Origin: Candidatus Peregrinibacteria bacterium
Lineage (GTDB): Bacteria > Patescibacteriota > Gracilibacteria > UBA1369 > LOWO2-01-FULL-3
Assembly: GCA_030592015.1 (NCBI GenBank)
Contig: JAUUZY010000005.1
Location: 400 to 64,399 of the forward strand
DNA: 64,000 bases
Reading direction: 5' to 3'
Part shown: positions 20,501 through 60,956 of the stretch, piece after piece
Numbering within the stretch: the first letter of the stretch is position 1
Layout: every line of letters starts with the position of its first letter
Translations under genes and position numbers: made by a program
Notes under the pieces: generated by a model
What the model was told of the DNA's origin: nothing
The model's input: only the letters and a program-made list of their open reading frames with translations
Database searches by the model: none

Positions 20501-23500
20501 ATGACTCATAAGATCAGCCCTAATCATTATTGACGAATCAGAACCTGGAATAAGATTTATATCTAAATTTACCTCATCAAGAATATCGAATGTTTCCTGT
20601 GCCACTACATAATCCCTAAAGTCTATTTTGCTCGTATCGTTCCCAGCCTCACTCAGCAAAGTCTCCAATTCATAATCCAGAAGCACAGCAAAGAGCTCAA
20701 GATTTTCAATAATATCATCTTCAGAAAACAAAACAGTATCAGCAGTACCGGCAAAAGTACCAAGTTGAGTTCCAATCAGAGCGGCATTTATATCGGAGAT
20801 TTGATCAAGATGCGCACCTTCTTCCACAAACAAAGCAATTTGTGCAAAAGTATTATCCGCAACATTTCCAAATTCATCCTTCACAATAAGCTTCAAGTCT
20901 GTCTTCGATTGCTCATTGGCAACAAGCACAAGGGAGTCTGCCTTTATCTCTATTTGGCTAGGCTCACCTGCGACAAGGCTCAGTTCACGATCTAATACCG
21001 GATAAGGCTCACCCACAACCACAGCCCTTAGAGCAAAATCTCCACTTACAGTTCCGGCCCTCAAATAAACAGTAGCCACACCATTCTCACTCTGAACAAC
21101 CTGACCATTCTCAAAAACAACAATATCTTCCACATCCGAAATTACAGAGAATTCAACCTGATGAGTTCTACTGTTATCAAATTCTCCCAGATCGTCAAAG
21201 AGATGAACATTAATCATCATAAGAGATTGACCATCAGCAACCATTTCAATATTCGCCTCAAGTTCATATATGCTATCCGGATTTTTCTCAGCATCTATAA
21301 AAGGATTTTCACTATCAGGAATAAGAGCCAACATACTGTCAGAGAAAAGTTCAGCAACCGGCCTAGTTCGACCTATTGATTGTACAGTTGAGTCCAAAAA
21401 GTTTTTCTGGTAATCCTTCCATTGATAATACCTTAGCCAGTTATCCGGAGCTACAGTCTCAACATGCGCATCTTCTTCCTCAGTTACTTCTTCCACGATA
21501 TCCTCAACAATTATTTCTTCTTCAACCGGCTCTTCAAGCACATCCTCAGTTGTTTCATCCAATTCAACAAGCTCTGAGAGAAGTATTATTATATTTCCAT
21601 CTTCATCATATTCGACAGCATCACTGCCATCAGTAGCCCCACCACCATCAGTAGCCCTACTACCGTCAGCAATCTCACCACCACCATCGACAACATCGCC
21701 ACCATCAACAACCCCGCTACCATCAGCAACATCGCCACTACCATCGGCAACCTCACCACCACCATCAACAACCTCACCACCATCATCAACATCGCCACCA
21801 CCATCAACAACACCGCTACCATCAACAACTCCATCACCATCAACAACCCCACCACCATCAACAACATCGCCACCACCATCAACAACACCGCTACCATCAA
21901 CAACACCGCTACCATCAACAACTCCATCACCATCAACAACCCCACCACCATCAACAACCCCACCACCATCGACAACTCCACTACCATCGACAACACCGTC
22001 ACCAGCATCAGCAACCCCCAGAACATCTTCAGGCGATACATCACTATCTTTAGTAGCAAGATACTCAGCATAAGGATCAAACCCTAATTCATCGTCAGCA
22101 ACTAATTTATTTATTTTCTCCAAATCATCCTCGTCCAGACCGGCTTCATAAACAGTGAAACTCAAAATCTCCATTTTTCTATTGCTGCTAAGAACCTTCA
22201 CGTTGTTCGATTCAAGCCCGGACTCACTGCCCAGGTAAAGAGTAACCTCTCCGGATTTGTTCGTAGAATTCAAACTAAAACTAGCCTCACCTCCAACAAA
22301 AGTTTTTTGATTCGTATCAATAAATACCAAAACAGGATCATCTTCATCCTGATCAATGGTCAAAGTTAATGCTTCAGTGTTTCCAGTGTGACCTACCAAA
22401 TTTCCGTTTTCATCAATACCTTTTACACTAACTTTAACGGTATCTACACCGTCAGCGGAAAGAATAGGCTTATCAACAGTCAGCTCAAGTTTAGAAACAG
22501 GCAGAGCAGTAATAACTTCAGTATCTTCGGAAAAATCATCCTCAGCAAAAAGTTGGGACGCACCGCAAGACTCCTCAAACTCAAGCCCATCATCCCAGAC
22601 AGTTATAAACAAAGGCAGTGCAATAAGTGCCTCGATAAATTCCTGGGTTTCCGTCATGAAATCTCGCAACGGAACAAAATCATCATCGTTTTCATCAGGA
22701 CTAAGTCCCTGGTCCCGCGTTTCTACACCGGAACCTTCACCATCCGCAGAAACATAAATACTCAAAGGATCAAAACTGGCATCCGTTTCCTCAGGAATGT
22801 CTTTGTTGAAATTCATATCGAAATAATCCTTTTCACCATCCAGCACCAGGTACGCAGACTCATAACCGTTTTTCACGCTGTAGCCTGGAGGGGCAGGTCG
22901 CATAGTTGAATCAACAACAAAGGAAGTTTCATCCGGAGCAGGATTCAGATATTTCCTTAGAACATAATCATGCTTATCATCGATATTTAAATTCAGCCAT
23001 CCAATAGCATCATGTAATTTTAGTGTAGAAGCAGTCTCAAGATTAAAGCCACTAATAGGAACATCAACTTGAGATCTGGTAATTATAGAAAAATAATTAT
23101 TAATAATTTCATCACGAATATCTCTATAGTCACCTGGACGAACATCAGGATTTGGAATCGTATGACTTCCTGGCATCAAAGCTATACGCCAAGCAAGAGC
23201 ATCCAGATCTGCCTCCAATTGCGACAAATTCTCAACTCTAAATGAATTTGGGAAAATAACTTTTTCAGTATTACCCGGATAATAGTGCGGAGTGGTTCGA
23301 AGACTGCCAACGATAGCTTGAACATCAATAGAGTCATTTATAGGGCGAGGATCGGGATAGTCCATAGGGTGTTCAGGATCAGACGTCGGTGGCAACGGCT
23401 GTGCCTGGAAGGCTAGGTATCTAGGACTATCAATAGGCAAACTAAACGAAGCCATCGATTTTATCTGCTGAGAAATTGTATAGTCGGTCGGTTCATTATG

Positions 23501-26500
23501 ATAAACAAGACTGGAGATATCTTTGTAGAGATCAGGTTCAACCTTCAAAGTGATATCGGAATCAAAAGAAGTTAATTGATGTGGAATAGTATAAGTAGAT
23601 TCATGGGACAAAAGTTTTCTGGCAATCTCATCCATATTTTGACTTGGAATTCCATATTGAATATCGGCCTCATCAAAGTCATACCATTTTGTTTCATAGA
23701 CTCCATCCTCATTTGTGTCACGCCATTCATAGTCCACGATCCCATTAGCATTGTTGTCTATTCCATCAAAAAGTCCATAACGATCAGAAAACTCCTTCAA
23801 GCTAACAAGCTCACCATCACTAGCATTTAGAACAACATCACTAGCATTGTATTCATCCAAACTGAGCCAAACATCCTCAATGTCAGGAGAAACATCAGCA
23901 TCAGCTGCATTCGGAACAGGCTGAGTAATAAACTTTCCAACAGCTTTCAGATATCGCCCATACAAATCAATTGAAATATTGTATCCCTCAAAATCAACAT
24001 CGACAAGGGGACCAAAATCAAACTCGCTAGGCGGATTCAGCGGGTAGTCATAGTAATTCGAATCACTGGCAAGGCTTCCAACAGAAGGAAGACCCGAGTA
24101 GCAAGAATCAAAATAAACATCATCAATATCTTCATAGCTATACTCATCCGGGAATTGGAAAAGATCCATATGGTCATCGTAGTCAGCAGGGTTAGACGAA
24201 TTCTGATTGCCTTCCTTTTTTACATTTTCAGGAAATTTTAATTGGAACTCATCTTCACCGGGAATCTCTACCTTCAAAGGTGCAACACTTCCAGCAGGGT
24301 CGGCTATAGGCATAGAAGCAAGCTTTGGGAAACAGCGATCACTATTTTTCCCAGCAGAATTTTGAGAACAACCGGCATAACTGTCATAGCCCTTATTCCC
24401 ATATCCTCCACGCTCACTACCGGCTTGACGCATATCATTGATAGTGAAAATCGCACCATCACTACCGGACCTAAAGCTAAAGAAACGATCATCCTGAAAG
24501 TCAAATCCTTCAGGATATCCAATATCTGAGAGAAGAATAAATACTCTAGGTGCATTATTCATAAATCCGGAACCAATTGCTCCTTCGGCAGAAGTTAGTC
24601 CACTCTTATTCAAAGTAAAACTAAAGTTATCTTCCATCAGCTCTCCATCCCTATAGAATTCAATTCCAATATTGGCTTTGGTAGAATTTATATCTCCATT
24701 TTCCAAAGCTGCCATTTTTGATTCACCTACAGGAACACCAAACATTGGACCTTCAGCATCCATACTTACTTCATAGGCAAGATCGGGAATACTGCTCAAT
24801 TGATCGTTGTTAACCGCAGATATAAACCTCTGAACATCTCTATATGACCTTTCAATCGCCTGATCAAACGACCATCGATAATCAATCGTTCTATTATTTA
24901 CACGCACAATCAGGTCACCCTCTTGCAATATTCCCTCAAGTGGATTGCTATAATTAGCATAAAGATGATTATGGGTAAAAGCCGGAACTCCACGATTAAG
25001 ATCATTTTCAATATAAGCACCGGGAACAGACAGACCTGTAAGCTCATGAGCCTCACTTGCAGAAATTACTCGGGTATTCACTCCGCTAGTATGCACAGGC
25101 ATAGAAGTGGAAATGTTATCAGTCCTAAGGGCACGAGTAAGAATAGAATACTCACCATCAACCGCAATTGGGTTGAAATCAAGATTTTCATCGAAATATT
25201 CAGACTTGGTCGAACCAAGGAACACACTACATTGCTTTGGATTTTCCAGAAGCTCAGCATCAATTCCGTTTATGTAGAATTTCCCATTAGCCTCATTAAG
25301 ATAATGGAATCTATAGTCAGTCTGGAACACAAGAGGAATAGGGGAGATGTCATCAGACGCAAAATTAATGACAAAATCATCACTATCTCCAAAGTATCCG
25401 GATATCCTGGAAGACTCCAAAATAGGCAAAGGCTCATCAATAAGATCGATAATTTCCATAACTTTTTTCTCCACAGCAGTATTTACTTCCTTCAAGTATT
25501 TCTTGGAGAATTCGTCCTTGATAGTTATAAGAACGGCAATATTGTCCATATCATCAGGAGTATAACGACCGGTATTTTCCGCCCAATCATTCGACTGCGC
25601 CACATACTTACTAAAAATTTCATAATACGTAAGAAGAGACTGTTCTATAATTGTCTTAGTGAATACATCCGGAACACTGGCAAGCGCATCGTCACTTTGA
25701 AACGATCCCAAAAACTCGGCAGCATCCTCACTTGGAGGATCAATTGCCACCTCACTTGCAATATCCCCAATCAACTGCTTCGCCCAAAACTTGTTGTATC
25801 TGTTGTAGGCAAGGTGCTCAATATTATCTAAGTACTCTATATAGTGAGAATAAACATCAGGATTTATTTTTTCCTCCTCATGAAGAAGGTCAGCAAAGAA
25901 CATTTTCTTCTCAAATTCCGCAAAATCAGGATGCCCTTCATAGTAGAGGTGATTCTTATCAAAAAATGTAGCCAATTTCTCTTTTCCTTCCCTATCTTCA
26001 GAAGGAGCCCTGATTATTCCATGCCAAATCTCAGGCTTAGGGAAGTTACTATCAAAATTCCTCTCAAACGATTCCGATTCAGAACTATATAGATAAGCCT
26101 TGTCATCAAAGTCAGTATAAGGAAATAGGCTAATAAACTTATTCCCATCTTTATTTACAACAGGCATAGGAATATCACCCACCAATACAACCCCAGCCAG
26201 TCGATTATTCCCGTTGCCATCACCATTCTGGTAAAGGTTCTCCAATGCATTTGCTAAGTCCACCACAGAGTCTTCTTCCTTGTCATAAAAAATGATCTTC
26301 GCATCGGTGAGGTCATAATTTGAACTTATATCATCAGCATATCTCAAAATCCTTGCACCAAGTGTAGGGGCATCCAAGGAAGAATATTCATTCCCAAGCC
26401 CCACATAAGAACTGTCCCCAAGGCTATTGTCTACCACTATTGCAACCAGGTCATATACTATATCCGGATCATTTGGAGACTGAGCTTGAGCAACAGCAGC

Positions 26501-26620
26501 TTCCACATCTCTATTAAATGAAAAAGCATATGCAACAGGTAAAGGTACTGTTCCTGTAACAAGCATCATTAATACGAGAATTGAAGGGACGATTTTTCGC
26601 TGTATAAAGCTAAATTTCAT
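11582..26620 (-). CDS. Giant (~5,012 aa) secreted surface protein: C25-peptidase-like N-domain, PDZ-like segment, Ig-like (Big/invasin) domains, VVDGxG repeats, FG-GAP/VCBS repeats, DUF11-like domain, Cys-rich and Pro-rich core, PKD/FN3-like domains, SLH repeats, DxDxDG Ca-binding repeats
   Basis: Uninterrupted 15-kb ORF. Likely start MKFSFIQRK...PVAYA at 26620 (track starts at 26686). Motifs: GVVLVGDIPMP...PEIWHGII; LQEGDLIVRVNN; LSADGVDTVKVSV; DYNGDGSDDLL, DLNNDGFDDLIVG, DMNADGCEDLV; FNPQELVNRAEFVK, FKPENTITRAESVK; DTDGGGVNDGDE. Confidence 0.85.
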   Translation of the reverse strand: MKFSFIQRKIVPSILVLMMLVTGTVPLPVAYAFSFNRDVEAAVAQAQSPNDPDIVYDLVAIVVDNSLGDSSYVGLGNEYSSLDAPTLGARILRYADDISSNYDLTDAKIIFYDKEEDSVVDLANALENLYQNGDGNGNNRLAGVVLVGDIPMPVVNKDGNKFISLFPYTDFDDKAYLYSSESESFERNFDSNFPKPEIWHGIIRAPSEDREGKEKLATFFDKNHLYYEGHPDFAEFEKKMFFADLLHEEEKINPDVYSHYIEYLDNIEHLAYNRYNKFWAKQLIGDIASEVAIDPPSEDAAEFLGSFQSDDALASVPDVFTKTIIEQSLLTYYEIFSKYVAQSNDWAENTGRYTPDDMDNIAVLITIKDEFSKKYLKEVNTAVEKKVMEIIDLIDEPLPILESSRISGYFGDSDDFVINFASDDISPIPLVFQTDYRFHYLNEANGKFYINGIDAELLENPKQCSVFLGSTKSEYFDENLDFNPIAVDGEYSILTRALRTDNISTSMPVHTSGVNTRVISASEAHELTGLSVPGAYIENDLNRGVPAFTHNHLYANYSNPLEGILQEGDLIVRVNNRTIDYRWSFDQAIERSYRDVQRFISAVNNDQLSSIPDLAYEVSMDAEGPMFGVPVGESKMAALENGDINSTKANIGIEFYRDGELMEDNFSFTLNKSGLTSAEGAIGSGFMNNAPRVFILLSDIGYPEGFDFQDDRFFSFRSGSDGAIFTINDMRQAGSERGGYGNKGYDSYAGCSQNSAGKNSDRCFPKLASMPIADPAGSVAPLKVEIPGEDEFQLKFPENVKKEGNQNSSNPADYDDHMDLFQFPDEYSYEDIDDVYFDSCYSGLPSVGSLASDSNYYDYPLNPPSEFDFGPLVDVDFEGYNISIDLYGRYLKAVGKFITQPVPNAADADVSPDIEDVWLSLDEYNASDVVLNASDGELVSLKEFSDRYGLFDGIDNNANGIVDYEWRDTNEDGVYETKWYDFDEADIQYGIPSQNMDEIARKLLSHESTYTIPHQLTSFDSDITLKVEPDLYKDISSLVYHNEPTDYTISQQIKSMASFSLPIDSPRYLAFQAQPLPPTSDPEHPMDYPDPRPINDSIDVQAIVGSLRTTPHYYPGNTEKVIFPNSFRVENLSQLEADLDALAWRIALMPGSHTIPNPDVRPGDYRDIRDEIINNYFSIITRSQVDVPISGFNLETASTLKLHDAIGWLNLNIDDKHDYVLRKYLNPAPDETSFVVDSTMRPAPPGYSVKNGYESAYLVLDGEKDYFDMNFNKDIPEETDASFDPLSIYVSADGEGSGVETRDQGLSPDENDDDFVPLRDFMTETQEFIEALIALPLFITVWDDGLEFEESCGASQLFAEDDFSEDTEVITALPVSKLELTVDKPILSADGVDTVKVSVKGIDENGNLVGHTGNTEALTLTIDQDEDDPVLVFIDTNQKTFVGGEASFSLNSTNKSGEVTLYLGSESGLESNNVKVLSSNRKMEILSFTVYEAGLDEDDLEKINKLVADDELGFDPYAEYLATKDSDVSPEDVLGVADAGDGVVDGSGVVDGGGVVDGGGVVDGDGVVDGSGVVDGSGVVDGGGDVVDGGGVVDGDGVVDGSGVVDGGGDVDDGGEVVDGGGEVADGSGDVADGSGVVDGGDVVDGGGEIADGSRATDGGGATDGSDAVEYDEDGNIIILLSELVELDETTEDVLEEPVEEEIIVEDIVEEVTEEEDAHVETVAPDNWLRYYQWKDYQKNFLDSTVQSIGRTRPVAELFSDSMLALIPDSENPFIDAEKNPDSIYELEANIEMVADGQSLMMINVHLFDDLGEFDNSRTHQVEFSVISDVEDIVVFENGQVVQSENGVATVYLRAGTVSGDFALRAVVVGEPYPVLDRELSLVAGEPSQIEIKADSLVLVANEQSKTDLKLIVKDEFGNVADNTFAQIALFVEEGAHLDQISDINAALIGTQLGTFAGTADTVLFSEDDIIENLELFAVLLDYELETLLSEAGNDTSKIDFRDYVVAQETFDILDEVNLDINLIPGSDSSIMIRADLMSHGVRVDKYSGDIVIENINPNLGGFLGKSGQTIQKLEKKMVDGTLPEINAVFIPNNLAGDAEIVVDVPGFTTDSVTIKIEPGEPHRIELSASEDIVFSSGGDVQLEARILDRYGNLVVADNETLISFLPTTATEDFIEFTGARTALPLNGIATTTIKGSGISGKLNLVAESDWIMRDKISLDVRKRLDSDDVEGFAPRALYVSLLGGAFGNMFDENNLAETFLHAGDSQAVSSITASAEGDKLLIGVDGFGKIDLLSETVGMQVIQSTDSFPYQKVIFDDSVFGDELASMFMVPSDGTDLVLLEEEEKIEDEDGIYVERISFSDSNIEFVERNDAVFVENNGTVMLKVDSFGRITLNNESLEMRVPQQDIDGLESNDLAFAIYDRGEILTLITFKQSFENAVQIIPFADEATSFFPGIYVKLNTAADNFDFNSAFSRTSSDNPNGVYLIDKNSSLDAGRAPGFGQTSLEDVGSNSGLGFEGDNKHMLFFSAGNSVGESHIPYASEIGVIYGDPMIRLKLDGMVGLVSGLTGYTKDIGKPIFNGEQTIQQLIEFDYNGDGSDDLLLLYEDGLVRLLENEISNKRFRDKGYILKMSNGIFSATKIDLNNDGFDDLIVGTKESCNVDEVCMSQFINQGGSFEKESLELAINGKAYEMKSGDMNADGCEDLVTSDSAGNVRIFYNKVDGDSCIGLDTNHGNSWNFGFQLDPEVDISSTIFVNYPGMEQLSSTIPEYSDVEHTDTVEDNSGKFIQFTLPSDDPPVGNAEVEGYANAVTDLQNSLLNNENIATGDIPEQTYPKNYDFINIKQDVRFSRSTKSSVDVNGEVIALDDRVKYIITLNNNGGSNIVNMMLSDVSPPSMTLLEDTLQCMDSGCRDELEWAETGMSARSLVITGITVPAGGKRTISYSASVDRMPKVNFDIGNDFANYPLSALGHSYNNDPYLDLQIRPEINPSAELIYEYSIGVSNGRVNYLENRVSSEPTLEELFDEQAERTGGINPTDFDDVDPNSEEFQDRMSALMASQNADSDYDGSVDSWDDALGEYQDLSESIANGIKNVSTLLRCSGGGCLPIPYNRAFLAPDGPIPGIAAIAIGTPNPPYVMPFYPSNLTSSVRWYISPTLTGGLGTAICAGPNIGHMSPCYAAAVPVQAAGVCPDLLGPVNDAVAKAKSSNSNPDVGMSTIVSDGENSAGSDAINTSSNYSDPDSPLSYSSAVNIRIPGFPSVITNWLDNQTDEIFNKLLDLPDLYFIYPDVNSLISDHAVSLKNFDKNRGGFLSVHDFLRAVNSMPLFQIEGKEVFIRVPAISQAEVEKWKRQAVLWIEYEQEQIQKIEDYWTCNISEERRTLCDAVTLDMTELIKSVRAAMDKIDQISRLPKDILTWRNLEAKYATQLICYMDAIMNYTGGYISRQQKTIESWMRAIEDVIRTIRDWKLLLDLIVDYQVNCDQCKNDRFSKLGILLSFFAAIPDPPIIPMPKWPDIVFDISQVKAGIKIVWPDLVFKPEPIRLPDLPTITLPEISPELRLVVPGFDLPDWLDFPTFTLPDLPDLPPLPLPQLPDLPRPPKIPQLPDVIGDLIVNLKPIFAVLCLLKKGLIPVPEWGLATEIETLTQPSVQVVLPLIKNLGVQMPEIQYDYVEQIKITTKLDMGIETDFIYVILKNGADKFNEKVMDLVENVNTVSGKSWQKVLDDAVDTAFKKATETAIDVAVPLLEGVVDPITSPIEDAAEEVGADISGDAGAYLPPEIAKVEGYFNNINQSLNDYVDNMEQIDYPDTYYLTATQEYLDPSDPILNRTLAEVEADILLQDLPDTPEMRHMAELRDSLIAYTKGLDESNTVLGEIEDYNEFGRILVDNDQSVRQIVALSTSKMYEPVSTETTVESSFFGEAVEERLRDVSGVSDLDTSNLLAANIDFDVDDYLESDEAATVPVPIGFFVAVGNGSENVLNYTSELENEIHTLFNDVDGDSDFDIIFSMGGDVYLKENHTNEVDYPKGNLIGGISGGFGNNSVSDYVVDGGASVQGVISPSENHKKVDISWIAKKDAVAYEVFIGSTPDGNENTAVARYVAVADPDAEFPNAFVLELADPNNPSISIELENGNYYPKIYAINADGEKSLPSFTNVIAPQSCSDNDSPFPAVSQIEYDIPLFTELEIDASNSFDSSGEIVAYYLETLPYDPDGKRATELRQFFYSDINYAYDEDGDGIAINDRSNPRFRVGPFEYEGDIGQHKFLLHVVDQSGNSSAQEIKVNVSAPNITLDETLARTSIATGETLPNMPVTLMRKRLIYRVVAGDLKAVEKNQKIETMTSDENGKYLSDETGVYTVNDLSVRDMLLVENSAGEIIAEIHPDTANVENLMDGYFINVEEANPPGTVTRIEIVDANGTVYATIHVVADQNTDVVVLEEVDFEDNIFELATGVHVSDENITDRYSFVKFAADDPDYPGAAALMDVIEGKQIAIVDSAGNVIFLADGVELIKKANDHTADPLIYELIYNGKVVAEIYVSVISGKRRVKIVGPNDVPFAQAHIPPSSDFVKTSLSKKEFIDVDDELAAILKELQKKDIIEGRESEDGIIFNPQELVNRAEFVKTLLKMLCIIPRPESYELGTEFNDIQYSESDLVWYYPFVKEASLLGLIHGYQGEIDNATGKSPFKPENTITRAESVKIILEALELKGVLNLEGLNVGDPWYDPFMLAGQNLTPYMTGNAVLQNNFIITTEEAANPEQEMTRAELVTMVTRVLEAYNCFEIDDDNDGMSDFCEEKYDIQNPDLDVDFDGVSNTDECSYGLDPTDADSDKGGTNDGDELDLGTNPLDAYDDPSDIDDDGLTDSEETNLYGTDPEIADTDGGGVNDGDEVRNGTDPLDASDDPPDRDFDGLSDSEEINLYGTNPAVADTDGGGVNDGDEVHKNLTDPLDGSDDFSDGGVYQEGESGVYVVPPECNTCPCTASILHGADIIPGDIFFSVISTEDEKHWFSKSNEVTIETVKK
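11790..12310 (-). repeat. Tandem ~150-bp repeats encoding thrombospondin type 3-like (bacterial DxDxDG) Ca-binding motifs
   Basis: DGLTDSEETNLYGTDPEIADTDGGGVNDGDEV versus DGLSDSEEINLYGTNPAVADTDGGGVNDGDEV. DNA copies start near 11831 and 11981. Confidence 0.85.
21620..22015 (-). repeat. 18/21-bp tandem repeat encoding VVDG(S/G/D)G hexapeptides
   Basis: Plus strand shows recurring CCACCATCAACAAC / CTACCATCAACAAC units; protein reads ...GVVDGSGVVDGGGVVDGGGVVDGDG... Confidence 0.9.
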
Positions 26621-26750
26621 AGGTATGACTTGGAAGGTGAGGACACAATTTTCCAAGTATAAATTATAGCAGCTTTTACAGGGCAAAAACAGTTAGTCCA
26701 AGCGCCAAAATCGCTTTTGAATTGACAGGCTAGAGGGGGTGTGCCGTGAC

Positions 26751-26791: not shown

Positions 26792-27274
26792 TTATCTAAC
26801 AAGCACACCATAACACCAAGAGTTCTCATTGTTTTCGATAGGAGTGCCCATAGAACCCTCAGCTATATCACCACAATTTCCATTAGCAGACCCAAAAATC
26901 TCAACATTTACTCTAATAGAGAAAGAATAGTTGTTACCAGGGTTAGAAACATATTTGTAATCATGTCCACTAGGATCCATAGGAATTTTCCCACCAAAAT
27001 CAGAAAGGAAAGCCTCTCCCCAAGAGCCAGGTTCAGAGGCCGGCCAACCTGTATTCATATCTGGGCTGATCTTTCCAGATGCATTTGGGAAAGCATCATC
27101 AGTCTCTAGACCATAGTTCAATAAAACCATTTGAATTTTTTGTAGGTCAGAAATTCTCTGAGCATCACGTCCTTTAGCAGGAGCTCTAAGCAAGGTAGGA
27201 AGAAAAGCCACAGCCAAAATACCAATGATGGTAATAACTATAAGTAGTTCGATGAGTGTAAAACCTTTTTTCAT
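26792..27274 (-). CDS. Type IV pilin / pseudopilin (copy 3)
   Basis: Class III signal KKG|FTLIELLIVITIIGILA with E5; KGRDAQRISDLQKIQ; C-terminal Cys pair. Confidence 0.9.
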   Translation of the reverse strand: MKKGFTLIELLIVITIIGILAVAFLPTLLRAPAKGRDAQRISDLQKIQMVLLNYGLETDDAFPNASGKISPDMNTGWPASEPGSWGEAFLSDFGGKIPMDPSGHDYKYVSNPGNNYSFSIRVNVEIFGSANGNCGDIAEGSMGTPIENNENSWCYGVLVR

Positions 27275-27289
27275 TTTAAAGTATTAAAA

Positions 27290-27778
27290 TTATTTAACAA
27301 AAACTGCATAACACCAAGTCGCCGAGTCAGAAGAATTCTGAGTGCCCAAAACACCTCCAGATACAGAGCCACAATTTGCATTTGCATTTTCAAAAATCTC
27401 AACAGCCCCGGTTATGGCAAGGGAATATTTTCCTGAACCAGGCGAATTAACATAGTAATAAGATGATCCATCTGGTTTAGTAGGGATTGCACCTCCAAAA
27501 TCACTAGAAAATGCACCAGCCCAATCATCAGCAGGGGCTCCAAATCCGGTTGCAAGCCCCGGAGTTATCACTCCTGTAGTAGGATATCCAGATCCATTTT
27601 CGAGGTTATAATTAATAAGTACTTTTTGAATCTTTTGAACATCAGCCATTACTTGCGTATCTCGCCCCTTTACAGGTGCCCCAAGCAAAGTAGGAAGGAA
27701 GGCCACAGCCAAAATTCCAATGATAGTAATGACAATAAGCAGTTCGATAAGGGTAAAACCTTTTTTGGATTTAAACAT
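27290..27778 (-). CDS. Type IV pilin / pseudopilin (copy 2)
   Basis: KKG|FTLIELLIVITIIGILAVAFLPTLL; KGRDTQVMADVQKIQ; C-terminal Cys pair. Confidence 0.9.
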   Translation of the reverse strand: MFKSKKGFTLIELLIVITIIGILAVAFLPTLLGAPVKGRDTQVMADVQKIQKVLINYNLENGSGYPTTGVITPGLATGFGAPADDWAGAFSSDFGGAIPTKPDGSSYYYVNSPGSGKYSLAITGAVEIFENANANCGSVSGGVLGTQNSSDSATWCYAVFVK

Positions 27779-27910: not shown

Positions 27911-28411
27911 TTAGTTAGACAAAAGAATATGACACCATAGAGATGCATCTCCACTATCGGTAGGAGCTACTATGTCACCAGCTGCAGCACCTACACAGGT
28001 TGTATTTGCATTAACAAAAAGCTCAACATCTGCCCAGATACCAAAAGTATAAGTTCCACTACCAGGTGCATCTATATAAGTATAAACCTCTGCATCTTGT
28101 GGCCCAGTTGGTAGTGTACCACCAAATTCAGGCGCGAAAAGAGCACCCCAAGTGTCACCAGAAGTCCCTGTAAAGAATAGTCCTGTTGCAATTGCACCAG
28201 CTTCAGTAGGATAACCATTACCACTTTCTAGGTCATAGTTAACCAAAACTTTCTGAATCTTTTGAAGATCAGCGATCCTCTGTGTGTCACGCCCTTTAGC
28301 TGGCGCTCCAAGCAGTGTTGGCAAGAAAGCCACAGCGAGGATACCAATGATCGTAATAACGATCAGTAGCTCAATAAGGGTAAAACCCTTTTTGTTTTTT
28401 AACATTCTCAT
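27911..28411 (-). CDS. Type IV pilin (copy 1; probable major pilin)
   Basis: KKG|FTLIELLIVITIIGILAVAFLPTLL; has its own promoter and terminator. True start may be ATG 28405. Confidence 0.9.
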   Translation of the reverse strand: MRMLKNKKGFTLIELLIVITIIGILAVAFLPTLLGAPAKGRDTQRIADLQKIQKVLVNYDLESGNGYPTEAGAIATGLFFTGTSGDTWGALFAPEFGGTLPTGPQDAEVYTYIDAPGSGTYTFGIWADVELFVNANTTCVGAAAGDIVAPTDSGDASLWCHILLSN

Positions 28412-54512: not shown

Positions 54513-56051
54513 CTAGTCTGCTCCAAACAAGGTGTCTTCATCTATTTCGGGAAAGACCTTTATAGAAATTTCATTCTTTGGATTAGCACACCTGTCCTGA
54601 AATATAGCATAACCGTCCCTAACATCTACAAATTTCCCCCGTCTTTCTAAGTCTCTAACTATTTTCTTCAAATCGCATAATAAGGTACCACCCTTAGTCG
54701 CAACAAGTTGAGCTTCAATTGCCTCCCAGGGATATTTTTGCTTGTCCTCATCTGAAAGAGCTTTTTCCCAATCCCCACAAAAAGAAGTAAGAAAAGATTC
54801 TGCATACACAGATATAATAGTCTTGCAGTCAGAATCCATATTTAGTGTTCTGCCCATCTTTGATCCAAGCTCACCCATAAGAGCAAGGACTACACTTTGA
54901 GGCAAATCAAGAGTTTCAGATTTTCCCTCAATAAAGTTAGCAAACTCTTCTCTATCTTCTTCTGTAATATTTGTCTTACCCTTTTCACCAGGAGCTAAAC
55001 GAGGGAATTGAATTAGTTTAGAATCAGATACTATAACGTACTTGCTATAATCTGGAGAATCGCTCTCACGGCTTCCAGCATTAATAAAAACAAGGCTACC
55101 CTTATTGTTTATCTTGTGGAATTCACCTCCACCTTTAAGACTCGACACAGTGTCTAATGCACGCCGACCACCAGCCACTAGTCGCTTTACAGCACCACCG
55201 AAAATACTTTCTAGATCCGGAAGACCATTCTCATCCAAAGTACAGCCTGGACCTGCAAGCTTTTGTATAGCTGCAAGATGAGCAGGATTCTTAGGGGGGT
55301 CAGCTTTCAGTTTTGTATAAATATTGCTGAATTGCTCCTCATAATTGGCCAAGTATGGTTCAACAGGGAGTACAAAGTACAGAGTTTTAGCACCCTCATC
55401 CAGTTTTAGTTCCCAATTCATAGCCCTAGCAGCTCTACAATTAATGGCATAGAGGTGTTTAAAGTCAATTGTGAGTTCACCTCCATGACGGATGACATCA
55501 GCAGCTTGCTTCTTCGCGTCATCAGGAATATTTTTTATTAAATGATCAATAACAGCCATTTCCTCTTCTGGATTACCGAGGAAACCTCTTCGAGGAGTTT
55601 CAGGTGGAGGAGGTGGCTTTCCTTCAGATGGCTGTGAAGCTTCGGGGGATTGTGAGGGGGCAGTAGCTGGAGTTCCACTTCTGAGTATAATCACACGGCG
55701 AGTTCTTCGTGGTTTTGGCGCATTAAGAGGTTCTGGTTCATCAGGGTCTGTCAATTCACTAGGATCTGGTGCCTTATATCTGAAATCGCTTTTTGGAGAC
55801 ATCTCATTCGAAGTGGCCAAAGGAGCATTATCTAAGGATATACCTGGATTCGCAGGATCCGCAACTTGCTGTATCGCTTTCAGGGTATCAAGGATTTTAT
55901 CATCAATTGTCTGTGTTTTCTCATCGTCATCGTCATCCTCCTCGTCTCCAAGTTCATCAAGTTCTTCAATGTCCACAGCCCCTTCTACTTCATCCACCAC
56001 ATCTTCAACAGGGTCACCGTCCCCAGGTCCCTTAATTTCTTTAGTTGCCAT
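54513..56051 (-). CDS. Hypothetical protein with an acidic and Pro-rich disordered N-terminus
   Basis: 512-aa ORF; EEDDDDDE and KPPPPPETP tracts; no signal peptide or TM helix. Confidence 0.7.
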   Translation of the reverse strand: MATKEIKGPGDGDPVEDVVDEVEGAVDIEELDELGDEEDDDDDEKTQTIDDKILDTLKAIQQVADPANPGISLDNAPLATSNEMSPKSDFRYKAPDPSELTDPDEPEPLNAPKPRRTRRVIILRSGTPATAPSQSPEASQPSEGKPPPPPETPRRGFLGNPEEEMAVIDHLIKNIPDDAKKQAADVIRHGGELTIDFKHLYAINCRAARAMNWELKLDEGAKTLYFVLPVEPYLANYEEQFSNIYTKLKADPPKNPAHLAAIQKLAGPGCTLDENGLPDLESIFGGAVKRLVAGGRRALDTVSSLKGGGEFHKINNKGSLVFINAGSRESDSPDYSKYVIVSDSKLIQFPRLAPGEKGKTNITEEDREEFANFIEGKSETLDLPQSVVLALMGELGSKMGRTLNMDSDCKTIISVYAESFLTSFCGDWEKALSDEDKQKYPWEAIEAQLVATKGGTLLCDLKKIVRDLERRGKFVDVRDGYAIFQDRCANPKNEISIKVFPEIDEDTLFGAD

Positions 56052-56248
56052 ATAATTTTAAATTTTTTAAATAGTGCCTAGCAAAAATCTCGAGCCAGGA
56101 TTGAGAGTTTAAAGAAAAGTTTAAAAAAATACAAACCAATTCAAGTTTTAGTAAAGGGGGGTGGCGCCCCACACAACCCTACTGGCTAAGGGGGAGAGAA
56201 TTTTGTATAATACTTGCAAGTAGTAATTACAAAAATTAACAAAACAAC

Positions 56249-56698
56249 ATGATTAAAAATTGGAGAACCGCAGCAATATGGGGATTAGTATTATGGGTAG
56301 CATTAGTAGTTGGAATCTCATTAATAGAACTAGGCTTAGCCCAGTTAGAAGAGTGTAGCAGGCAGGTATTCTGGCTACTTATTGCAATTCCAATCACAAT
56401 ATTTGCTGCAAGCAGGTATTTCAAAAAGTATCCGGGTGAACTAAAAGAGGGGCTAATGTTAGGAGCATGGTTTGTGGGAATGGCTATAATTTTAGACATG
56501 ATAATTAGAGTGCCACTATTTTATAAATTTAACTACGGTGCATATTGGACTTCAACAGTAGGAGTATTTGGAGGCTTTGCAGTTATAATTATCTGTTCAG
56601 CAATTACTGCTCTGGCCATGCAGCTTATTAGTAAAAAAGAACCGAAGAAAGTGGAGGAAGAGCCTGAAGAAGGTAAAGGAGAGGAAACTAAAAAATAA
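56249..56698 (+). CDS. Four-TM membrane protein
   Basis: Four hydrophobic segments (EGLMLGAWFVGMAIILD); first gene of a plus-strand trio. Confidence 0.75.
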   Translation: MIKNWRTAAIWGLVLWVALVVGISLIELGLAQLEECSRQVFWLLIAIPITIFAASRYFKKYPGELKEGLMLGAWFVGMAIILDMIIRVPLFYKFNYGAYWTSTVGVFGGFAVIIICSAITALAMQLISKKEPKKVEEEPEEGKGEETKK

Positions 56699-56713
56699 AT
56701 AAAAAAACACATA

Positions 56714-58369
56714 ATGCAAACAACAAATCCAACACCACAAGTACCACAGCAACCACAGCCCACACCTCAAGTACACGAGCAAGCAGGAAAAAAATCAGGG
56801 GGGAAAATAATTATCGCGATTGTTATTGTTTTAGTTCTACTCGCGGGGGGATATTTTGCTTATCAAAAATTGTCTAAGACTGACGAAGCAGAAACAGACA
56901 CTGTGGCGATTGAAACTGAGAGCTTGGATCTCCTACCTCCGGAATTTGATAAATATGCAGTAGGTGAGGATGCAAATGGATTTATTATAATAAGAAATGA
57001 TGAAGAGCTTACAAATCTATGGGAAAAGCTTGCTGATCCGGAACCAGGGGTAGAGACACCAGATCTAGGGGCATTTAAAAACGGTTTAATATTGATCAAG
57101 GCAGGGGAGGAAGAAGGGATCAAGGCGATATTGCAATTCGAAACCGAAGAAGATGCAGAAAAGGCAATAAATGGATATAATGAATATTTTGGCAATACAT
57201 CTGGCATTTTTGGATCTAGAGAGGGGGAAAGTGACGTGAGCACTGAAGGGAATTTTCTGATTTTTACTTTTGCGGAAGAAACTATCAGTTTTAACGGCTC
57301 ACTATATGACAACCCACTTTTAGAAGATGTAGATCAAACATTACTGGATGCTCAAATAATAGTTTATTTAGATGAAAAAATGAGCAGCATTTTGATAAAT
57401 GCGATGTTAGGTGCATCACTAGCAGATGCAATGCCATATGCACAGTCAGTGGCAAGTAATAACTATAGGGGATTTTCCATATTTCCTACCGCACACGCAC
57501 AGTTTTTAACCGATAGCGATAGGTCTACTGTACTAGGAACAGCCACAGAAGAGGAGCGCATACCGGTAGAAAGAATAATGATAAGCGCTTTGTCGACAAG
57601 TAAGAGTATCGGCATTTTTATCAAGGTCAGCGAAAACGATTTAAAAATAACCCTAGAGGATAGATTTATGGAAGTAGAGGATGTATTGAAATGGATGGAA
57701 GAAGAGGGGGTTGAAGCAACAGAAGAAGACTTGGAGGACTATAAGGAAGGATCTGCCCAAGGAATGAGAGACCTAGAGAAGGCCCTTCCGGAAATAGAAT
57801 CTACAATTAATACTAATTTCCCAAAAAACACTAATACAGAAGCAACTCTTGAGGACCGTAAATTCACTTTAAACGTTTCGGTGTCTATTGAAGACTTGCT
57901 CGAATTTATAGACAACACAGGAGAAGAAATAGAATTGGCAGACATAAAAGGAAGGGACGCAACTAGAATCACAGATCTACAAAAAATTCAGAAGGGTCTT
58001 GTAGTCTATGATTTAGAAAATACTTCATACTTTCCACGTATTGGAGGACAAATTATCGCTTCGTTGGAAACCGGATTCGAGGCCCCTGACGATACATGGG
58101 GAACGGCATTTGCAGGTGAACTCGGAGGGGAGCTGCCAATAGGAACATATTTTTACACAAGTTTCGCAGATGGTTATGGTTTTGCATTATCTGGTATTGT
58201 AGAGGGAGTAGAGAGTGCAAATGCGGATTGTAAGGATGACAATGCAAATATAAAAGCCGGAATACTTGGGGATCCTACTGAGCCTGGCGCAATTCCTTGC
58301 TATGTGATTTTCCGCGGGGCTACCACTCCGGACAGTTCAGCTAAAGAAAACAACAAGCTTGCAAGGTAA
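56714..58369 (+). CDS. Membrane-anchored protein with a C-terminal type IV pilin globular head domain
   Basis: Pro/Gln-rich N-tail, one TM helix, acidic body. Residues from 57947 (KGRDATRITDLQKIQK...TGFEAPDDTWGTAF...ANADC...CYVIF) align with the pilins at 26792-28411. Confidence 0.8.
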   Translation: MQTTNPTPQVPQQPQPTPQVHEQAGKKSGGKIIIAIVIVLVLLAGGYFAYQKLSKTDEAETDTVAIETESLDLLPPEFDKYAVGEDANGFIIIRNDEELTNLWEKLADPEPGVETPDLGAFKNGLILIKAGEEEGIKAILQFETEEDAEKAINGYNEYFGNTSGIFGSREGESDVSTEGNFLIFTFAEETISFNGSLYDNPLLEDVDQTLLDAQIIVYLDEKMSSILINAMLGASLADAMPYAQSVASNNYRGFSIFPTAHAQFLTDSDRSTVLGTATEEERIPVERIMISALSTSKSIGIFIKVSENDLKITLEDRFMEVEDVLKWMEEEGVEATEEDLEDYKEGSAQGMRDLEKALPEIESTINTNFPKNTNTEATLEDRKFTLNVSVSIEDLLEFIDNTGEEIELADIKGRDATRITDLQKIQKGLVVYDLENTSYFPRIGGQIIASLETGFEAPDDTWGTAFAGELGGELPIGTYFYTSFADGYGFALSGIVEGVESANADCKDDNANIKAGILGDPTEPGAIPCYVIFRGATTPDSSAKENNKLAR

Positions 58370-58379
58370 TAAAACAACA

Positions 58380-59024
58380 ATGATAAATAAATTCATCAAG
58401 GCAGGAATTATAATCTTTGTCTTCTTCGTATTCTGGTCGCTCTATAACCTGATAGCTGTGTTAGATTCAGGGGCTGGGATGGACATGTTATTCAATTACT
58501 TTGGAATAACCATCCTCTTTTCAGTAATAACGGTATCAGTAGTTTTCAGACCAAAGAAAAAACCAATTCTCAAAATTGCAGACAAGGAATTGACAACAAT
58601 GGCAAAGGAAGTCCTCAAAAACTTATTGGCCTCAATAGAAAAAGGATCAATTGTTTCTAGAGAGAACATTTCTCCTAGACTCATTCCGATCATGCAAAAG
58701 GAAATGGATATCTACAAGGAAATTCTTTCCAATGGCATAGAGGTAGAATGCAAAGCAGAAAACATAGACCACACAAGTTGCAGGATCGTAGAGGAAGGTG
58801 AAAAGAATATTAAACTAAAACTCATTGGGGTTTTTAGGCACAACTATTATCACAATAAAAAGATGCTGGACAACCCCGCGGACAAAAATAACTATGCAAA
58901 CAGCAATATAAGACCTTTTCAGGCTGGAGGATATACTCTAAATTTCGAAAAATTCGCCAGCGGTGATTATCGTCTAATTGGCTATACAGACGATATTGTT
59001 GGCAACAAATATGGGGAATTGTAG
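58380..59024 (+). CDS. Hypothetical membrane protein (two N-terminal TM helices)
   Basis: Likely ATG 58380 (track 58359); two TM helices then a soluble domain. Confidence 0.65.
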   Translation: MINKFIKAGIIIFVFFVFWSLYNLIAVLDSGAGMDMLFNYFGITILFSVITVSVVFRPKKKPILKIADKELTTMAKEVLKNLLASIEKGSIVSRENISPRLIPIMQKEMDIYKEILSNGIEVECKAENIDHTSCRIVEEGEKNIKLKLIGVFRHNYYHNKKMLDNPADKNNYANSNIRPFQAGGYTLNFEKFASGDYRLIGYTDDIVGNKYGEL

Positions 59025-59026
59025 CT

Positions 59027-59425
59027 CTACCTCTTCTTCCACCATTCATACACAAAAATCACCAACCATATCCCCATCAAACTGGCGAATAGGTCCAAAA
59101 GACTGAACGTTCGGTTCATTGAGAAATTCTGCATCAATTCTTCAACAATTGTAAGAACAGTAAGGATTGCTGGACCAACTGGCAGCCCATATGCCTTATT
59201 TCTATTGAACGCTCTATGTACCAGATAACCCCAAATGCCATACAGAAAAAAATGCCCTAAAAGATCATAGTGGGGGATAAATGCTATCCAGTTGGGTATG
59301 CCCTTTGTATAGGCTAGATAAAGGATAACTGCTATTCCCGACGTATAGATTAGGGCAAATACAATCCATTTATTATTCCTCAGGTTCATAGGTTTCTTTA
59401 GTTTTTTCAGGTTCTTTGTATTCAA
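59027..59425 (-). CDS. VanZ-family membrane protein
   Basis: DLLGHFFLYG, EELMQ...RTFSLLDLFASLMG. True start may be 59389. Confidence 0.8.
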   Translation of the reverse strand: MNTKNLKKLKKPMNLRNNKWIVFALIYTSGIAVILYLAYTKGIPNWIAFIPHYDLLGHFFLYGIWGYLVHRAFNRNKAYGLPVGPAILTVLTIVEELMQNFSMNRTFSLLDLFASLMGIWLVIFVYEWWKKR

Positions 59426-60956
59426 AGTATGTTTTGAGTGAACTTAGTTTGTCCATGGCCTTTGCCCTATTGAAATTGTAGGCAAATATAGAACTTTCTT
59501 TTCTGAGCTCACGTAGTTTTGCCTCAATAATATTTTCAACCCTTAGTTTTTGCTTATAAGTTAGGTCAACGTCTTTCAGCATATCAAAAGCAAGCGTGGC
59601 ATCTACAGATAAAGTTCCAAGGTAATTCAAGTCAAAAATTGTACTATTAAAATCTATAGCATCACTATATACAACACTTTTTGACTCTATAAATTTTTGA
59701 ATATTTTGCTCTGCAATCACTCGGTCCACATTTATAGAAGAGACAGCAGTTAAGGCAGTAAGCCCTATCACTAAACTTAGATAAAAATATTTTCTAAACT
59801 CTAAGCTAGCAATCAAACTTGCCGCTCCAATCAATGTGAGTACTATGGTTAGATAAATAAACCATTCAACATACAATCTCAAAATGGTATATCCGTATGC
59901 ATCTTGATATAGGTTCATCCTTTTTAGTGCTGAGAAGGCAATCACGGCAACCTGGAATATCAACAAGACTTGTAGAACTGTAACAGCCTTTGACTCCCCA
60001 TGGTGCGAGAAGGATTTGTATATAGCCCCCAATATAAATGAGGCCAATACGATCACCCACGCCAGCTCAAAGAAACCACTCCGAGCATAGTTCGCAAATG
60101 TTATTCCATTTTCACTTATAAATTCTGCATTTCCGAATAAGTACTGAACCTGGATAAATACAAATAATAGAAACAGTCCATTTATCAATGCCAGTACCGT
60201 TATAGTTGTAATTCTATCTAATTTCATCGCATCTGCTATTTTTTCCCCCAATTTATGCTTCTTGCCAATAAGAACATAGAAAAAACCGCTTAGCAGTAGG
60301 GCCACGGTAACTGTTCTAATCACACGCCATCCTTTATCAACATCTATATCAAAATTGAATATTCGTACCATCAAGTCTGAAAATACAGCATCAGCATTCG
60401 CAAATAGAAGGGCAAACAAGAATAAAATTGGTAGTGATATGGCAATCCCCTTTATGATTTTTTTTGTAACATCTGTATTACTGACTTTTTTAAAGTTCAA
60501 AACATCATTCTTTAGATGTTTAAGTTTATTTAGGACTATGAATACATTGCGTACTACAGGGATCTTTGCAAAAGAAAACAAATGACTATGAGGATTTTTC
60601 AAAGTAGAAAATACAGAAAAGAGAAACAAAAGGATTAAAACGAAAAGAGGTACTCCAGTCTGTACGAGACTATTGTTTAGAAGCAAAATATCTATACTCA
60701 TTATTGAAATTGGTATGAGTAACAATAAAGACAATTTGTTTTTTAACTGCTTTATGGATACGCTTATTGCCAAAAAGCCGAGCACATAAATAAGCACAAA
60801 AAGTGCAAATCCAAGTCCGGGTTGGATGTCCCATAGGAAGATTTCAGAGAGGACCGCCAGTACTAATGCAAATCCTGCAAAGATAAGGCGAGAAGATTTT
60901 TTTGTTTCTATAATATGAGAAAATGTTTCATTTTCCATAGTTTTGTAAATTAGCAT
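59373..60956 (-). CDS. DUF4153/DUF4173-family integral membrane protein
   Basis: LPILFLFALLFANADAVF, QVQYLFG, YARSGFFEL, SALKRMNLYQDAYGYTILR, YLGTLSVDA. Confidence 0.85.
   Translation of the reverse strand: MLIYKTMENETFSHIIETKKSSRLIFAGFALVLAVLSEIFLWDIQPGLGFALFVLIYVLGFLAISVSIKQLKNKLSLLLLIPISIMSIDILLLNNSLVQTGVPLFVLILLFLFSVFSTLKNPHSHLFSFAKIPVVRNVFIVLNKLKHLKNDVLNFKKVSNTDVTKKIIKGIAISLPILFLFALLFANADAVFSDLMVRIFNFDIDVDKGWRVIRTVTVALLLSGFFYVLIGKKHKLGEKIADAMKLDRITTITVLALINGLFLLFVFIQVQYLFGNAEFISENGITFANYARSGFFELAWVIVLASFILGAIYKSFSHHGESKAVTVLQVLLIFQVAVIAFSALKRMNLYQDAYGYTILRLYVEWFIYLTIVLTLIGAASLIASLEFRKYFYLSLVIGLTALTAVSSINVDRVIAEQNIQKFIESKSVVYSDAIDFNSTIFDLNYLGTLSVDATLAFDMLKDVDLTYKQKLRVENIIEAKLRELRKESSIFAYNFNRAKAMDKLSSLKTYFEYKEPEKTKETYEPEE

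Follow-up and report, generated by a model that had tools for sequence, protein, structure and literature searches.

Modular type IV pilins, such as PilB and PilC of Streptococcus sanguinis (Raynaud et al. 2021, PMC8179133), join a pilin module to a large non-pilin module within a single polypeptide, and occur in bacteria that lack an outer membrane. As described in the accessible part of that paper, such pilins carry a class III signal (IPR012902 motif), a full N-terminal pilin module and a C-terminal extra module, they polymerize through the N-terminal part of helix alpha1 (alpha1-N), and the grafting of modules widens the abilities of the pilus system. We analyzed a protein of related composition encoded in a stretch of 64,000 nucleotides from Candidatus Peregrinibacteria bacterium (contig JAUUZY010000005.1), which is referred to as the window. 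The gene, located at 56714..58369 on the + strand and delimited by the open reading frame (ORF) list, its orthologs and a family profile search, encodes a membrane-anchored protein of 551 amino acids (aa) with a pilin head at its C-terminal end. In contrast to modular pilins, the order of its parts is reversed (anchor, body, head), and neither a prepilin motif nor alpha1-N is present. We are highly confident that its product is a bitopic surface protein belonging to a small family with a five-part layout and a helix-less head of the GspG/T2SSG kind, and that in this member, as comparison with relatives indicates, the head has given way to one of the genome's own major-pilin type.

Other described proteins resemble individual parts of the 551-aa protein. 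The pilins of the window match the GspG/PulG models (PF08334, TIGR01710), and the fused head is homologous to those pilins. However, the fused head gives no direct match to PF08334, and it lacks the methylation motif and the helix that every GspG has. One family member, P0004, has been named 'pseudopilin PulG', a label that suits its last quarter only; on such 500-aa proteins, 'PulG' labels mislead annotators. TP0453 of Treponema pallidum is, like the 551-aa protein, a membrane-tethered extracytoplasmic alpha/beta protein, but it has no pilin domain, shows no sequence-level match, and comes from other organisms with another type of envelope. DUF3352 proteins (PF11832) share a cytoplasmic tail, one anchor and a large ectodomain with the 551-aa protein, but have no pilin head and, in the consensus, no basic tail. 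An anchored, helix-less pilin head on a TP0453/DUF3352-like protein was not found described in the searchable literature, which leaves bioRxiv supplements and subscription journals outside. The preprint 'A Novel Pilus System in CPR Bacteria' was considered and set aside, since the part of it that was accessible deals with unrelated, Ig-like donor-strand pili. What we regard as new is the existence of a conserved family, the TP0453-like domain and the tail that accompany its head, and the exchange of a head documented here.

The five parts follow one another along the gene. Residues 1-29 (56714..56800, +) form a Pro/Gln-rich N-terminus with a Lys-rich patch at its end, which was unstructured and of low confidence in the model and which, by the positive-inside rule, is probably cytoplasmic. 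A comparable N-terminal extension was found in P0001, P0002, P0003, P0011, P0012 and P0018, which are relatives of the f1 type, f1 being the family-level group of the window. Residues 30-51 (56801..56866, +) are the single transmembrane anchor, IIIAIVIVLVLLAGGYFAY, recognized as a hydrophobic stretch and modelled as a helix at 30-50; its GGYFAY motif is conserved across the family. The extracytoplasmic alpha/beta body covers residues 72-405 (56927..57928, +) and was delimited by a body model, Foldseek, VIA-align and hhalign. The pilin head at residues 409-533 (57938..58312, +), which consists of an alpha1-C helix and a beta part with Cys506-Cys529, rests on BLASTP, trees, profiles and the Cys pattern. 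Residues 534-551 (58313..58366, +) form a short linker and a basic tail ending in NKLAR, and the stop codon follows at 58367-58369 (+). The tail is of the family type, as it aligned with the ortholog tails KKVER, KKVKR and EKVLR; pilins stop 2-3 residues past the last Cys, whereas the 551-aa protein continues into the linker and KLAR. A chimera of the assembly was also considered. The region 57142-58382 was covered without difference by a separately assembled contig of run X1, which bridges both ends of the head, indicating that the fusion is real and not a misassembly.

The head is related to the three pilins encoded in the window. Their genes lie in tandem on the - strand, about 30 kb from the 551-aa gene, and each pilin starts with the prepilin motif KKGFTLIE. 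Pilin 1 (27911..28411, 166 aa) matched N_methyl at E 9.5e-10 and TIGR01710 partially; pilin 2 (27290..27778, 162 aa) matched N_methyl at E 3.9e-9 and T2SSG with 23.8 bits, over the cut-off of 21; pilin 3 (26792..27274, 160 aa) matched N_methyl at E 7.5e-8 and T2SSG with 20.6 bits, just under the cut-off. They adjoin a 419-aa and a 506-aa gene, which by eye resemble a type IV pilus platform protein and an ATPase, respectively. In BLASTP, the 551-aa protein matched pilin 1 with E 3e-18 (39% identity over 135 aa), pilin 2 with E 2e-24 (40% over 132 aa) and pilin 3 with E 2e-20 (40% over 121 aa), and the identities of the fused head to the three were 41.0%, 43.1% and 39.3%, respectively. After removal of the KGRD helix, residues 437-540 still matched residues 62-162 of pilin 2 with E 7e-15 (35% over 96 aa), indicating that the similarity reaches beyond this helix. 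C506 and C529 share alignment columns with both Cys of the pilins. In a whole-genome search, four copies of the head were found, namely the fused one and the three pilins.

Much of the first, sequence-only reading of this gene was borne out by these results. It had proposed homology to the pilin head, with retention of both Cys, and the strings that it quoted (KGRDATRITDLQKIQKGLVVYDLEN, TGFEAPDDTWGTAF, ANADC and CYVIF) are all present in the sequence. It had also named a similarity limited to the KGRD helix as a point that could speak against the homology, and the match of the beta part alone answers this. The extent that it gave, 57947-58318, needed correction to 57938-58312. Finally, it had described the cleavage site and alpha1-N as absent and replaced by a membrane anchor, which agrees with what was found: the 551-aa protein has no prepilin motif, Pfam and NCBIfam scans gave no N_methyl or TIGR02532 match in it, and the anchor lies at 30-51.

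The missing parts bear on polymerization. A motif scan of the window for the G-F-T-L-I-E type found the three pilins only, and PF08334 did not match the fused head at E<=0.1. Helix alpha1-C begins at residue 409, about 350 residues past the sole hydrophobic helix (30-51), so that the continuous alpha1 helix of about 50 residues cannot form. Since alpha1-N, the cleavage site and Glu5 are all missing, polymerization by the known route is not possible. A prepilin peptidase match is present in the genome. Four more prepilin-type N-termini (KKGFTLVE, KKGMTLVE and twice QKGFTLIE) were observed elsewhere in the genome, at C57:3051-5495 and C64:138897-140873; these genes have no head of the major-pilin type and probably encode minor pilins. 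A second copy of a pilus ATPase-like gene was noticed by eye at C22:2277-3746.

The sequence-only reading treated the fusion as a local event. This did not hold, because anchor, body, head and tail occur together in a conserved family. The only relative retrieved by a word-based search was P0001 (529 aa, 30% identity, 93% coverage), a hypothetical protein assigned to Candidatus Gracilibacteria. Six-frame searches of the order added full-length relatives in four genomes (G088, G101, G155 and G177), and the orthologs in these and in G189 are 516-546 aa long. Partial forms were also recovered: the one in G089 has no head, the one in G120 breaks off just after the head begins, and the copy in G173 runs into the end of its contig. 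With the body profile, strong matches (E 3.4e-35 or better) were obtained in 9 of the 205 genomes of the order, the next best match being 3.3e-7. Of 401 genomes sampled across the class, four reached E<=1e-10; these all belong to this order, and the approximately 336 sampled genomes of the other orders gave no match. The full-length profile retrieved 38 of 1.84 billion cluster representatives at E<=1e-30. Ten clusters that were inspected were singletons or pairs, labelled hypothetical (Peregrinibacteria, Patescibacteria group) and once 'pseudopilin PulG'. Family members carried the source labels Peregrinibacteria and Gracilibacteria, and the body of the 551-aa protein was 22-34% identical to those of seven orthologs. 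These searches point to a small unnamed family that, as far as sampled, appears restricted to one order of Patescibacteria.

Members share the plan of an anchor, a body of about 340 aa, a helix-less pilin head, a Ser/Thr/Pro-rich linker and a (K/R)-[VIL]-x-R end. The typical family head has an alpha1-C of the type AP-x-(K/R)-A-R-D-A-A-R-K-A-D-L-N, followed by C...C-x-G-Y-Y-Y-Q...L-W-A-K-x-E...N-G-N. PF08334 matched the head in 11 of 30 members scanned at E<=0.05, three of them reaching at least 21 bits, and no N_methyl or TIGR02532 match was found among the 28-30 members scanned. By eye, a lipoprotein-type signal replaces the anchor in P0032, P0040 and P0041. Among the 37 rows of the body tree other than the window protein, 31 include a head. 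The basic tail occurs in most members; the window protein ends in KLAR and its relatives in KVER, KVKR, KVLR, KISR or KVSR, and the head-less members P0003, P0029, P0033 and P0035 keep it as well. As the tail persists without the head, the (K/R)-[VIL]-x-R C-terminus may be a sorting or anchoring signal. Other arrangements were also observed. P0006 and P0036 have two tandem heads, and P0036 and P0042 consist of an anchor and head(s) without a body. P0008 and P0042 show, past the head, a weak stretch resembling a WxL-interacting peptidoglycan-binding domain (23.2 and 26.5 bits, below the cut-off of 27.3). A 287-aa protein of the same genome (C64:131196-132056, +), with Ala-Pro repeats, an anchor similar to that of the family (IGGFFLY) and an acidic outer part, ends in PRVSR.

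Next, the origin of the window head was analyzed by comparison with 34 other fused heads (4 from genomes whose pilins were also fetched and 30 from the representative search), 27 f1 pilin heads, the three own pilins and four f17 pilins. In a careful maximum-likelihood analysis of 69 rows and 138 columns, a single clade (support 96/91) beside the f17 pilins comprised all 34 other fused heads, and the fused heads of G101, G088, G155 and G177 grouped apart from the pilins of their own genomes. In contrast, the window head fell inside a 31-row clade of f1 pilins (98/97), where its closest neighbours were own pilins 2 and 3 (99/84), joined next by own pilin 1 and a G106 pilin (97/88). Two further trees gave the same topology, with pilin 2 placed as the sister of the fused head. 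The tree of bodies paired the window protein with P0011 (96) in a clade of 10 f1-type rows (99), and the heads of these members, where present, formed the matching subclade within the family-head clade (91/90). Forcing the window head into this subclade cost 28.3 log-likelihood units (approximately unbiased (AU) test, p 0.041), and one clade of the window head with its own pilins was compatible with the data (AU p 0.45).

Measures that do not depend on a tree gave a similar picture. The window head scored 22.2 bits with the family-head profile and 62.0 bits with the f1 pilin profile from which the own pilins were excluded. In leave-one-out comparisons, all 34 other fused heads preferred the family-head profile by 31-110 bits, with 75.0 bits as the lowest own score, and all 27 f1 pilins preferred the pilin profile by 30-111 bits. 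As for the Cys residues, all 34 other fused heads and all four f17 pilins have the first pair only ('CC..'), whereas the window head and all three own pilins have the second pair only ('..CC'); among the 27 other f1 pilins, 18 have both pairs, 5 the second only, 3 the first only, and 1 is mixed. Moreover, the window head was 39-45% identical to pilins and at most 27.7% identical to any other fused head. The features of family-type heads, that is, the first Cys pair and C-x-GYYYQ...LWAK-E..NGN, are absent from it. Profiles, Cys columns and identity, three tree-free measures, are thus consistent with a swap. Because the family-type body, linker and K-L-A-R tail are kept around a pilin-type head, internal replacement of the head by one of the genome's own major-pilin type is the simplest account. 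The proposal of the sequence-only reading that the head is of the genome's own pilin type accordingly gained support from the tree, the profile scores and the '..CC' pattern. Clustering of fused heads by orthology, which it had named as an outcome that would refute it, was found for the 34 other heads, which form one clade apart from their own pilins, but not for the window's head. Its claim that the copy was recent was not upheld. The own pilin heads are 38-46% identical to one another and the fused head is 39-43% identical to them, the DNA of the head is 50-52% identical to the pilin genes, and no long identical patch was found; with a protein identity like that of pilin paralogs and such DNA divergence, the replacement is old and bears no trace of recent conversion.

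Several observations weigh against a swap from the own pilins. The value of AU p 0.041 is marginal, and the constrained group was named after the head tree had been seen. Broader constraints were not rejected, whether all 5 fused heads of a 39-row set (p 0.08), all 35 fused heads of the 69-row set (p 0.139) or the three f1 fused heads (p 0.19) were held together, and the tree tests alone are therefore only suggestive. The alignment of the heads is short (138-141 columns), the bootstrap of the 69-row tree was not fully settled, and the f17 pilins in the comparison were four only. The window head is 44.9% identical to a G104 pilin and 43.2% to a G054 pilin, compared with 39-43% to its own, so that identity does not favour the own pilins and an origin within the genome rests on the tree and the Cys pattern; the '..CC' pattern itself also occurs in 5 of the 27 other f1 pilins. 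Because similarity to sequences of the window itself guided the retrieval of the f1 pilins, the pilin-profile score may be inflated, although the low family-head score of 22.2 bits is independent of how they were fetched. These points leave some room for an explanation without a swap, in which the head is the original family head that diverged fast and converged on pilin features, or was misplaced through long-branch effects. The AU tests that group all fused heads (p 0.08 and 0.139), the long end branch of the window head (1.0-1.2) and an alignment of only about 140 columns are in its favour. However, convergence would have to drop the family Cys pair and gain the C-terminal pair of the pilins in the same columns, and also yield the TGF-AP-D-W--AF insert and a 40-bit preference for the pilin profile. 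The head would also have to fall to 22.2 bits on a profile on which the lowest of 34 members, left out one at a time, reached 75.0, while the body stands firmly among the f1-type members (99), and forcing the head into that position gave AU p 0.041. We consider an explanation without a swap improbable, and replacement of the head is the reading carried forward.

No Pfam or NCBIfam match to the body was found in the 551-aa protein or in the 28-30 family members scanned, and its structure was modelled. The full-length model was poor (predicted local distance difference test score, pLDDT, 51), whereas the body modelled with 38 sequences reached a pLDDT of 83.9 and a predicted template-modelling (TM) score of 0.81. 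Its top and only clear structural match was TP0453 of T. pallidum (Foldseek E 5.7e-6, probability 1.00, TM score 0.48 on the target), which was also the top match of the full-length model. VIA-align of body and TP0453 gave Z 9.1 with 194 of 251 residues aligned and a root-mean-square deviation (rmsd) of 5.7 A; the runners-up were the PknH ectodomain (Z 5.7) and TiME (Z 5.2). The model thus predicts a TP0453-like fold for the body, a likeness at the level of the fold only, with 10-12% identity. TP0453 is a membrane-associated lipoprotein according to the accessible part of PMC7521688, and titles cited in that paper concern membrane sensing by two amphipathic helices and enhanced membrane permeability.

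The sequence-only reading had also guessed at a DUF3352-like body. This received weak support from a profile comparison and none from the Pfam model, as hmmscan with PF11832 gave no match on the 551-aa protein at E<=0.1. When the family profile was compared by hhalign with a profile of 18 DUF3352 proteins from this order, the probability was 69% (E 4.3e-5, 174 columns); the alignment spans the anchor and the first half of the body, while the second half was unaligned. With a single DUF3352 protein, the probability was 0.8%. Leads below 0.9 only were found in the ESM Atlas (DUF4836; a DUF3352 cluster at 0.86). Sequence searches of solved structures with the body profile, with the genome's own DUF3352 protein and with the DUF3352 profile returned nothing relevant. 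The body is thus possibly a distant relative of DUF3352. That hhalign pairs the anchor of the family with that of DUF3352 indicates that the anchor belongs with the body and not with a pilin. DUF3352 proteins were present in 26 of the 31 relatives searched, and a six-frame search of the genome with PF11832 at E<=10 returned a single match, C26:78-1214 (-) (L079). This gene encodes a true DUF3352 protein (E 2.2e-21), which has a long Lys-rich cytoplasmic tail and one anchor.

The heads were also compared in two segments, alpha1-C (24 columns) and the rest. In alpha1-C, all 8 f1-type fused heads were nearer to f1 pilins than to f17 pilins, and the reverse was true of all 27 other fused heads. 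Over the remainder of the head, the 34 non-window heads were nearer to each other (0.26-0.39) than to any pilins (0.18-0.29). P0011, the nearest body relative of the window protein, has a strikingly pilin-like alpha1-C and the smallest profile margin (+31 bits). As a lead, this pattern suggests co-evolution or repeated partial conversion with the pilins of the lineage. The co-evolution with cognate pilins that the sequence-only reading proposed is thus possible for the 24-residue alpha1-C, the one part that tracks the pilins of the lineage across the family, but it was not supported as a general rule for the heads.

The position of the gene links the family to pili in two genomes. In G189, a pilin gene and then the family gene come after the terminal part of a pilC-like gene, homologous to the 419-aa pilus gene of the window, all on one strand, and in G173 the order on one strand is pilin, pilin, family gene. 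The slot after the pilins, which holds the family gene in G189 and G173, is occupied in the window by a 5034-aa ORF (11582-26686, -) directly after the three pilins on the same strand. By eye, this ORF has acidic Gly/Val/Asp repeats and, near its end, thrombospondin-like Asp-rich repeats.

The history of the protein and a possible mechanism can be outlined from these results. With the same high confidence as for the layout, the head is ancestral to the family and normally evolves as a lineage of its own, and in the window's lineage the segment between body and tail was exchanged as a cassette, presumably by recombination with a pilin gene. Under the proposed mechanism, the protein would be tethered in the cytoplasmic membrane with body and head outside, barred from the core of the filament. 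Its pilin-like surface would make contacts of the kind that a pilin makes through its head and alpha1-C, with pilins, with the shaft or base of the pilus, or with the assembly platform, and the TP0453/DUF3352-like body would keep a hold on the membrane or envelope. A role in pilus contact would explain why the head is interchangeable with a real pilin head and why alpha1-C follows the lineage's pilins. Taken as a whole, a family protein with a swapped head and a pilus-linked role is our best explanation, which we consider about equally likely to be right or wrong; its functional part, in which a tethered, non-polymerizing pilin mimic works with the type IV pilus through its pilin-like surface, is put forward as a plausible proposal that falls somewhat short of probable.

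This functional part has weaknesses of its own. The family gene lies away from pilus genes in 7 of the 9 genomes, the window included. The alpha1-C pattern comes from 24 columns of related, non-independent sequences and could also have arisen from an ancestral state and parallel change. Furthermore, the likeness to TP0453 is at fold level only (10-12% identity, rmsd 5.7 A) and says little on function.

Other roles were weighed against pilus contact; as candidate roles, the sequence-only reading had put forward a primer, a cap, a receptor or a decoy. The tethered head might be a short-range adhesin that binds the host ligand of the pilus shaft, so that contact would pass to the cell body after retraction; the TP0453-like body would engage host membrane or lipids, and the head swap would retune the adhesin to the current pilins. 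The head and the rest of the protein lie outside the cell, and the whole head was replaced by the own-pilin type, its variable beta part and disulfide loop included. According to the accessible part of PMC6744442, type IV pili are regarded as central to the way in which these bacteria associate with hosts, and the closest fold, TP0453, is that of a membrane-associated protein, with titles on membrane sensing and permeability cited in PMC7521688, as far as that paper could be consulted. However, across the family it is alpha1-C that follows the pilins and not the beta part, which is the reverse of what a shared ligand predicts; ligand, host or lipid binding would be conjectural, and a fold match does not transfer function. 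We regard an adhesin as unlikely, though less so than the following two roles. If the anchor were instead a degenerate class III signal cut by the prepilin peptidase, the protein could enter the pilus as a tip or priming subunit. By eye, G-[FLMI]-[SA] stands immediately ahead of the hydrophobic segment in 23 of the 42 listed proteins (P0001-P0042), and position +5 is often Lys. Such N-termini, noted among P0004-P0039, L009, L012, L016 and L020, read x-K-G-[FLM]-S-(V/I/A)-(V/I)-K and resemble KKGFTLIE with Lys for Glu5, although pilin-signal models did not recognize them. Tip pseudopilins such as GspK lack Glu5. Weak pilin-type matches were found at the N-termini of P0016 (E 0.093) and P0035 (E 0.012), the gene adjoins pilin genes in G173 and G189, and modular pilins are likely exposed at the tip according to the accessible part of PMC8179133. 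Nevertheless, the window protein and its f1-type relatives have a 30-residue Pro/Gln-rich extension in place of the motif, none of the 28-30 members scanned matched N_methyl or TIGR02532, and three members have lipoprotein-type signals by eye. In addition, hhalign pairs the anchor with that of DUF3352 and not with pilins, and the roughly 350 residues between anchor and alpha1-C preclude a continuous alpha1. Incorporation into the pilus is accordingly given very little weight. The pilin head is the part exposed on the type IV pilus filament, and an own-pilin-type head displayed on the surface could divert phages or antagonists that bind pili, acting as a decoy, or could be a self-recognition receptor for the pili of sister cells. 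In 34 of 35 family members, however, the head is not of the own-pilin type, so that mimicry of the current pilin is not the general function of the family. Besides, a decoy fixed to the surface would draw phage towards the cell, and no defence genes were seen beside the gene. A decoy or self-recognition role thus seems about as improbable as the absence of a swap.

An additional fused head was observed outside the family. A 446-aa frame in G204 (L025 970-2307, -; family f19), with a lipoprotein-type signal (LFSGC) and no Pfam match, carries a helix-less pilin head in mid-protein (residues 142-272), between two unrelated parts. This head grouped with the G080 and G081 pilins (100/97), indicating that here a non-pilin protein acquired a pilin head independently, so that such reuse may be recurrent.

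The surroundings of the gene were also analyzed. A 149-aa membrane protein is encoded upstream on the same strand (56249..56698, +), 15 bases before the gene, and a 221-aa membrane-anchored protein without a Pfam match is encoded downstream (58359..59024, +), its listed start overlapping the end of the gene; judging from adjacency, both are possibly co-transcribed with the 551-aa gene. No terminator-like site was found in 55900-59500, where the promoter and terminator scan was not above shuffles. Homologs of the two flanking genes were not found beside the orthologs by tblastn. Among RNA runs, X3 included, none was found to contain the gene. Divergent from this three-gene group lies a gene at 54513-56051 (-) for a 512-aa protein with a strongly acidic N-terminus and a Pro-rich stretch, without a Pfam match. 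The genome assembly comprises 1.2 Mb in 75 contigs and is about 90% complete. An alternative genetic code was rejected, because TGA serves as a stop: long ORFs end in TAA (361), TAG (192) and TGA (67), and the standard code applies.

Type IV pili are thought to be the main tool with which these ultra-small, host-dependent bacteria find and hold their hosts, and pilus-associated proteins beyond the core machine are hardly known in them. The exchange of the head is a natural experiment: as one lineage exchanged its head for that of its own pilin type, a real pilin head can do the head's job. The family gives testable candidates for pilin-pilin or pilin-machine contacts outside the filament, and a candidate function for the TP0453/DUF3352-type ectodomain. 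Recombination between pilin and non-pilin genes would be a possible way to retune surface proteins, for which this locus is a testable candidate. We further propose, as a speculation that we would sooner doubt than believe, that the family is a tethered 'stand-in pilin' fitted to its own pilus, with alpha1-C kept in step through repeated gene conversion or co-evolution and the whole head exchanged once the pilins have drifted far enough. If this is true, the protein would be a missing envelope-side component of the type IV pilus in bacteria without a secretin; it might serve as a docking collar or as an anchor at the base, gripping the filament by contacts like those of pilins, or alternatively might pass host contacts from the retracting pilus to the cell body.

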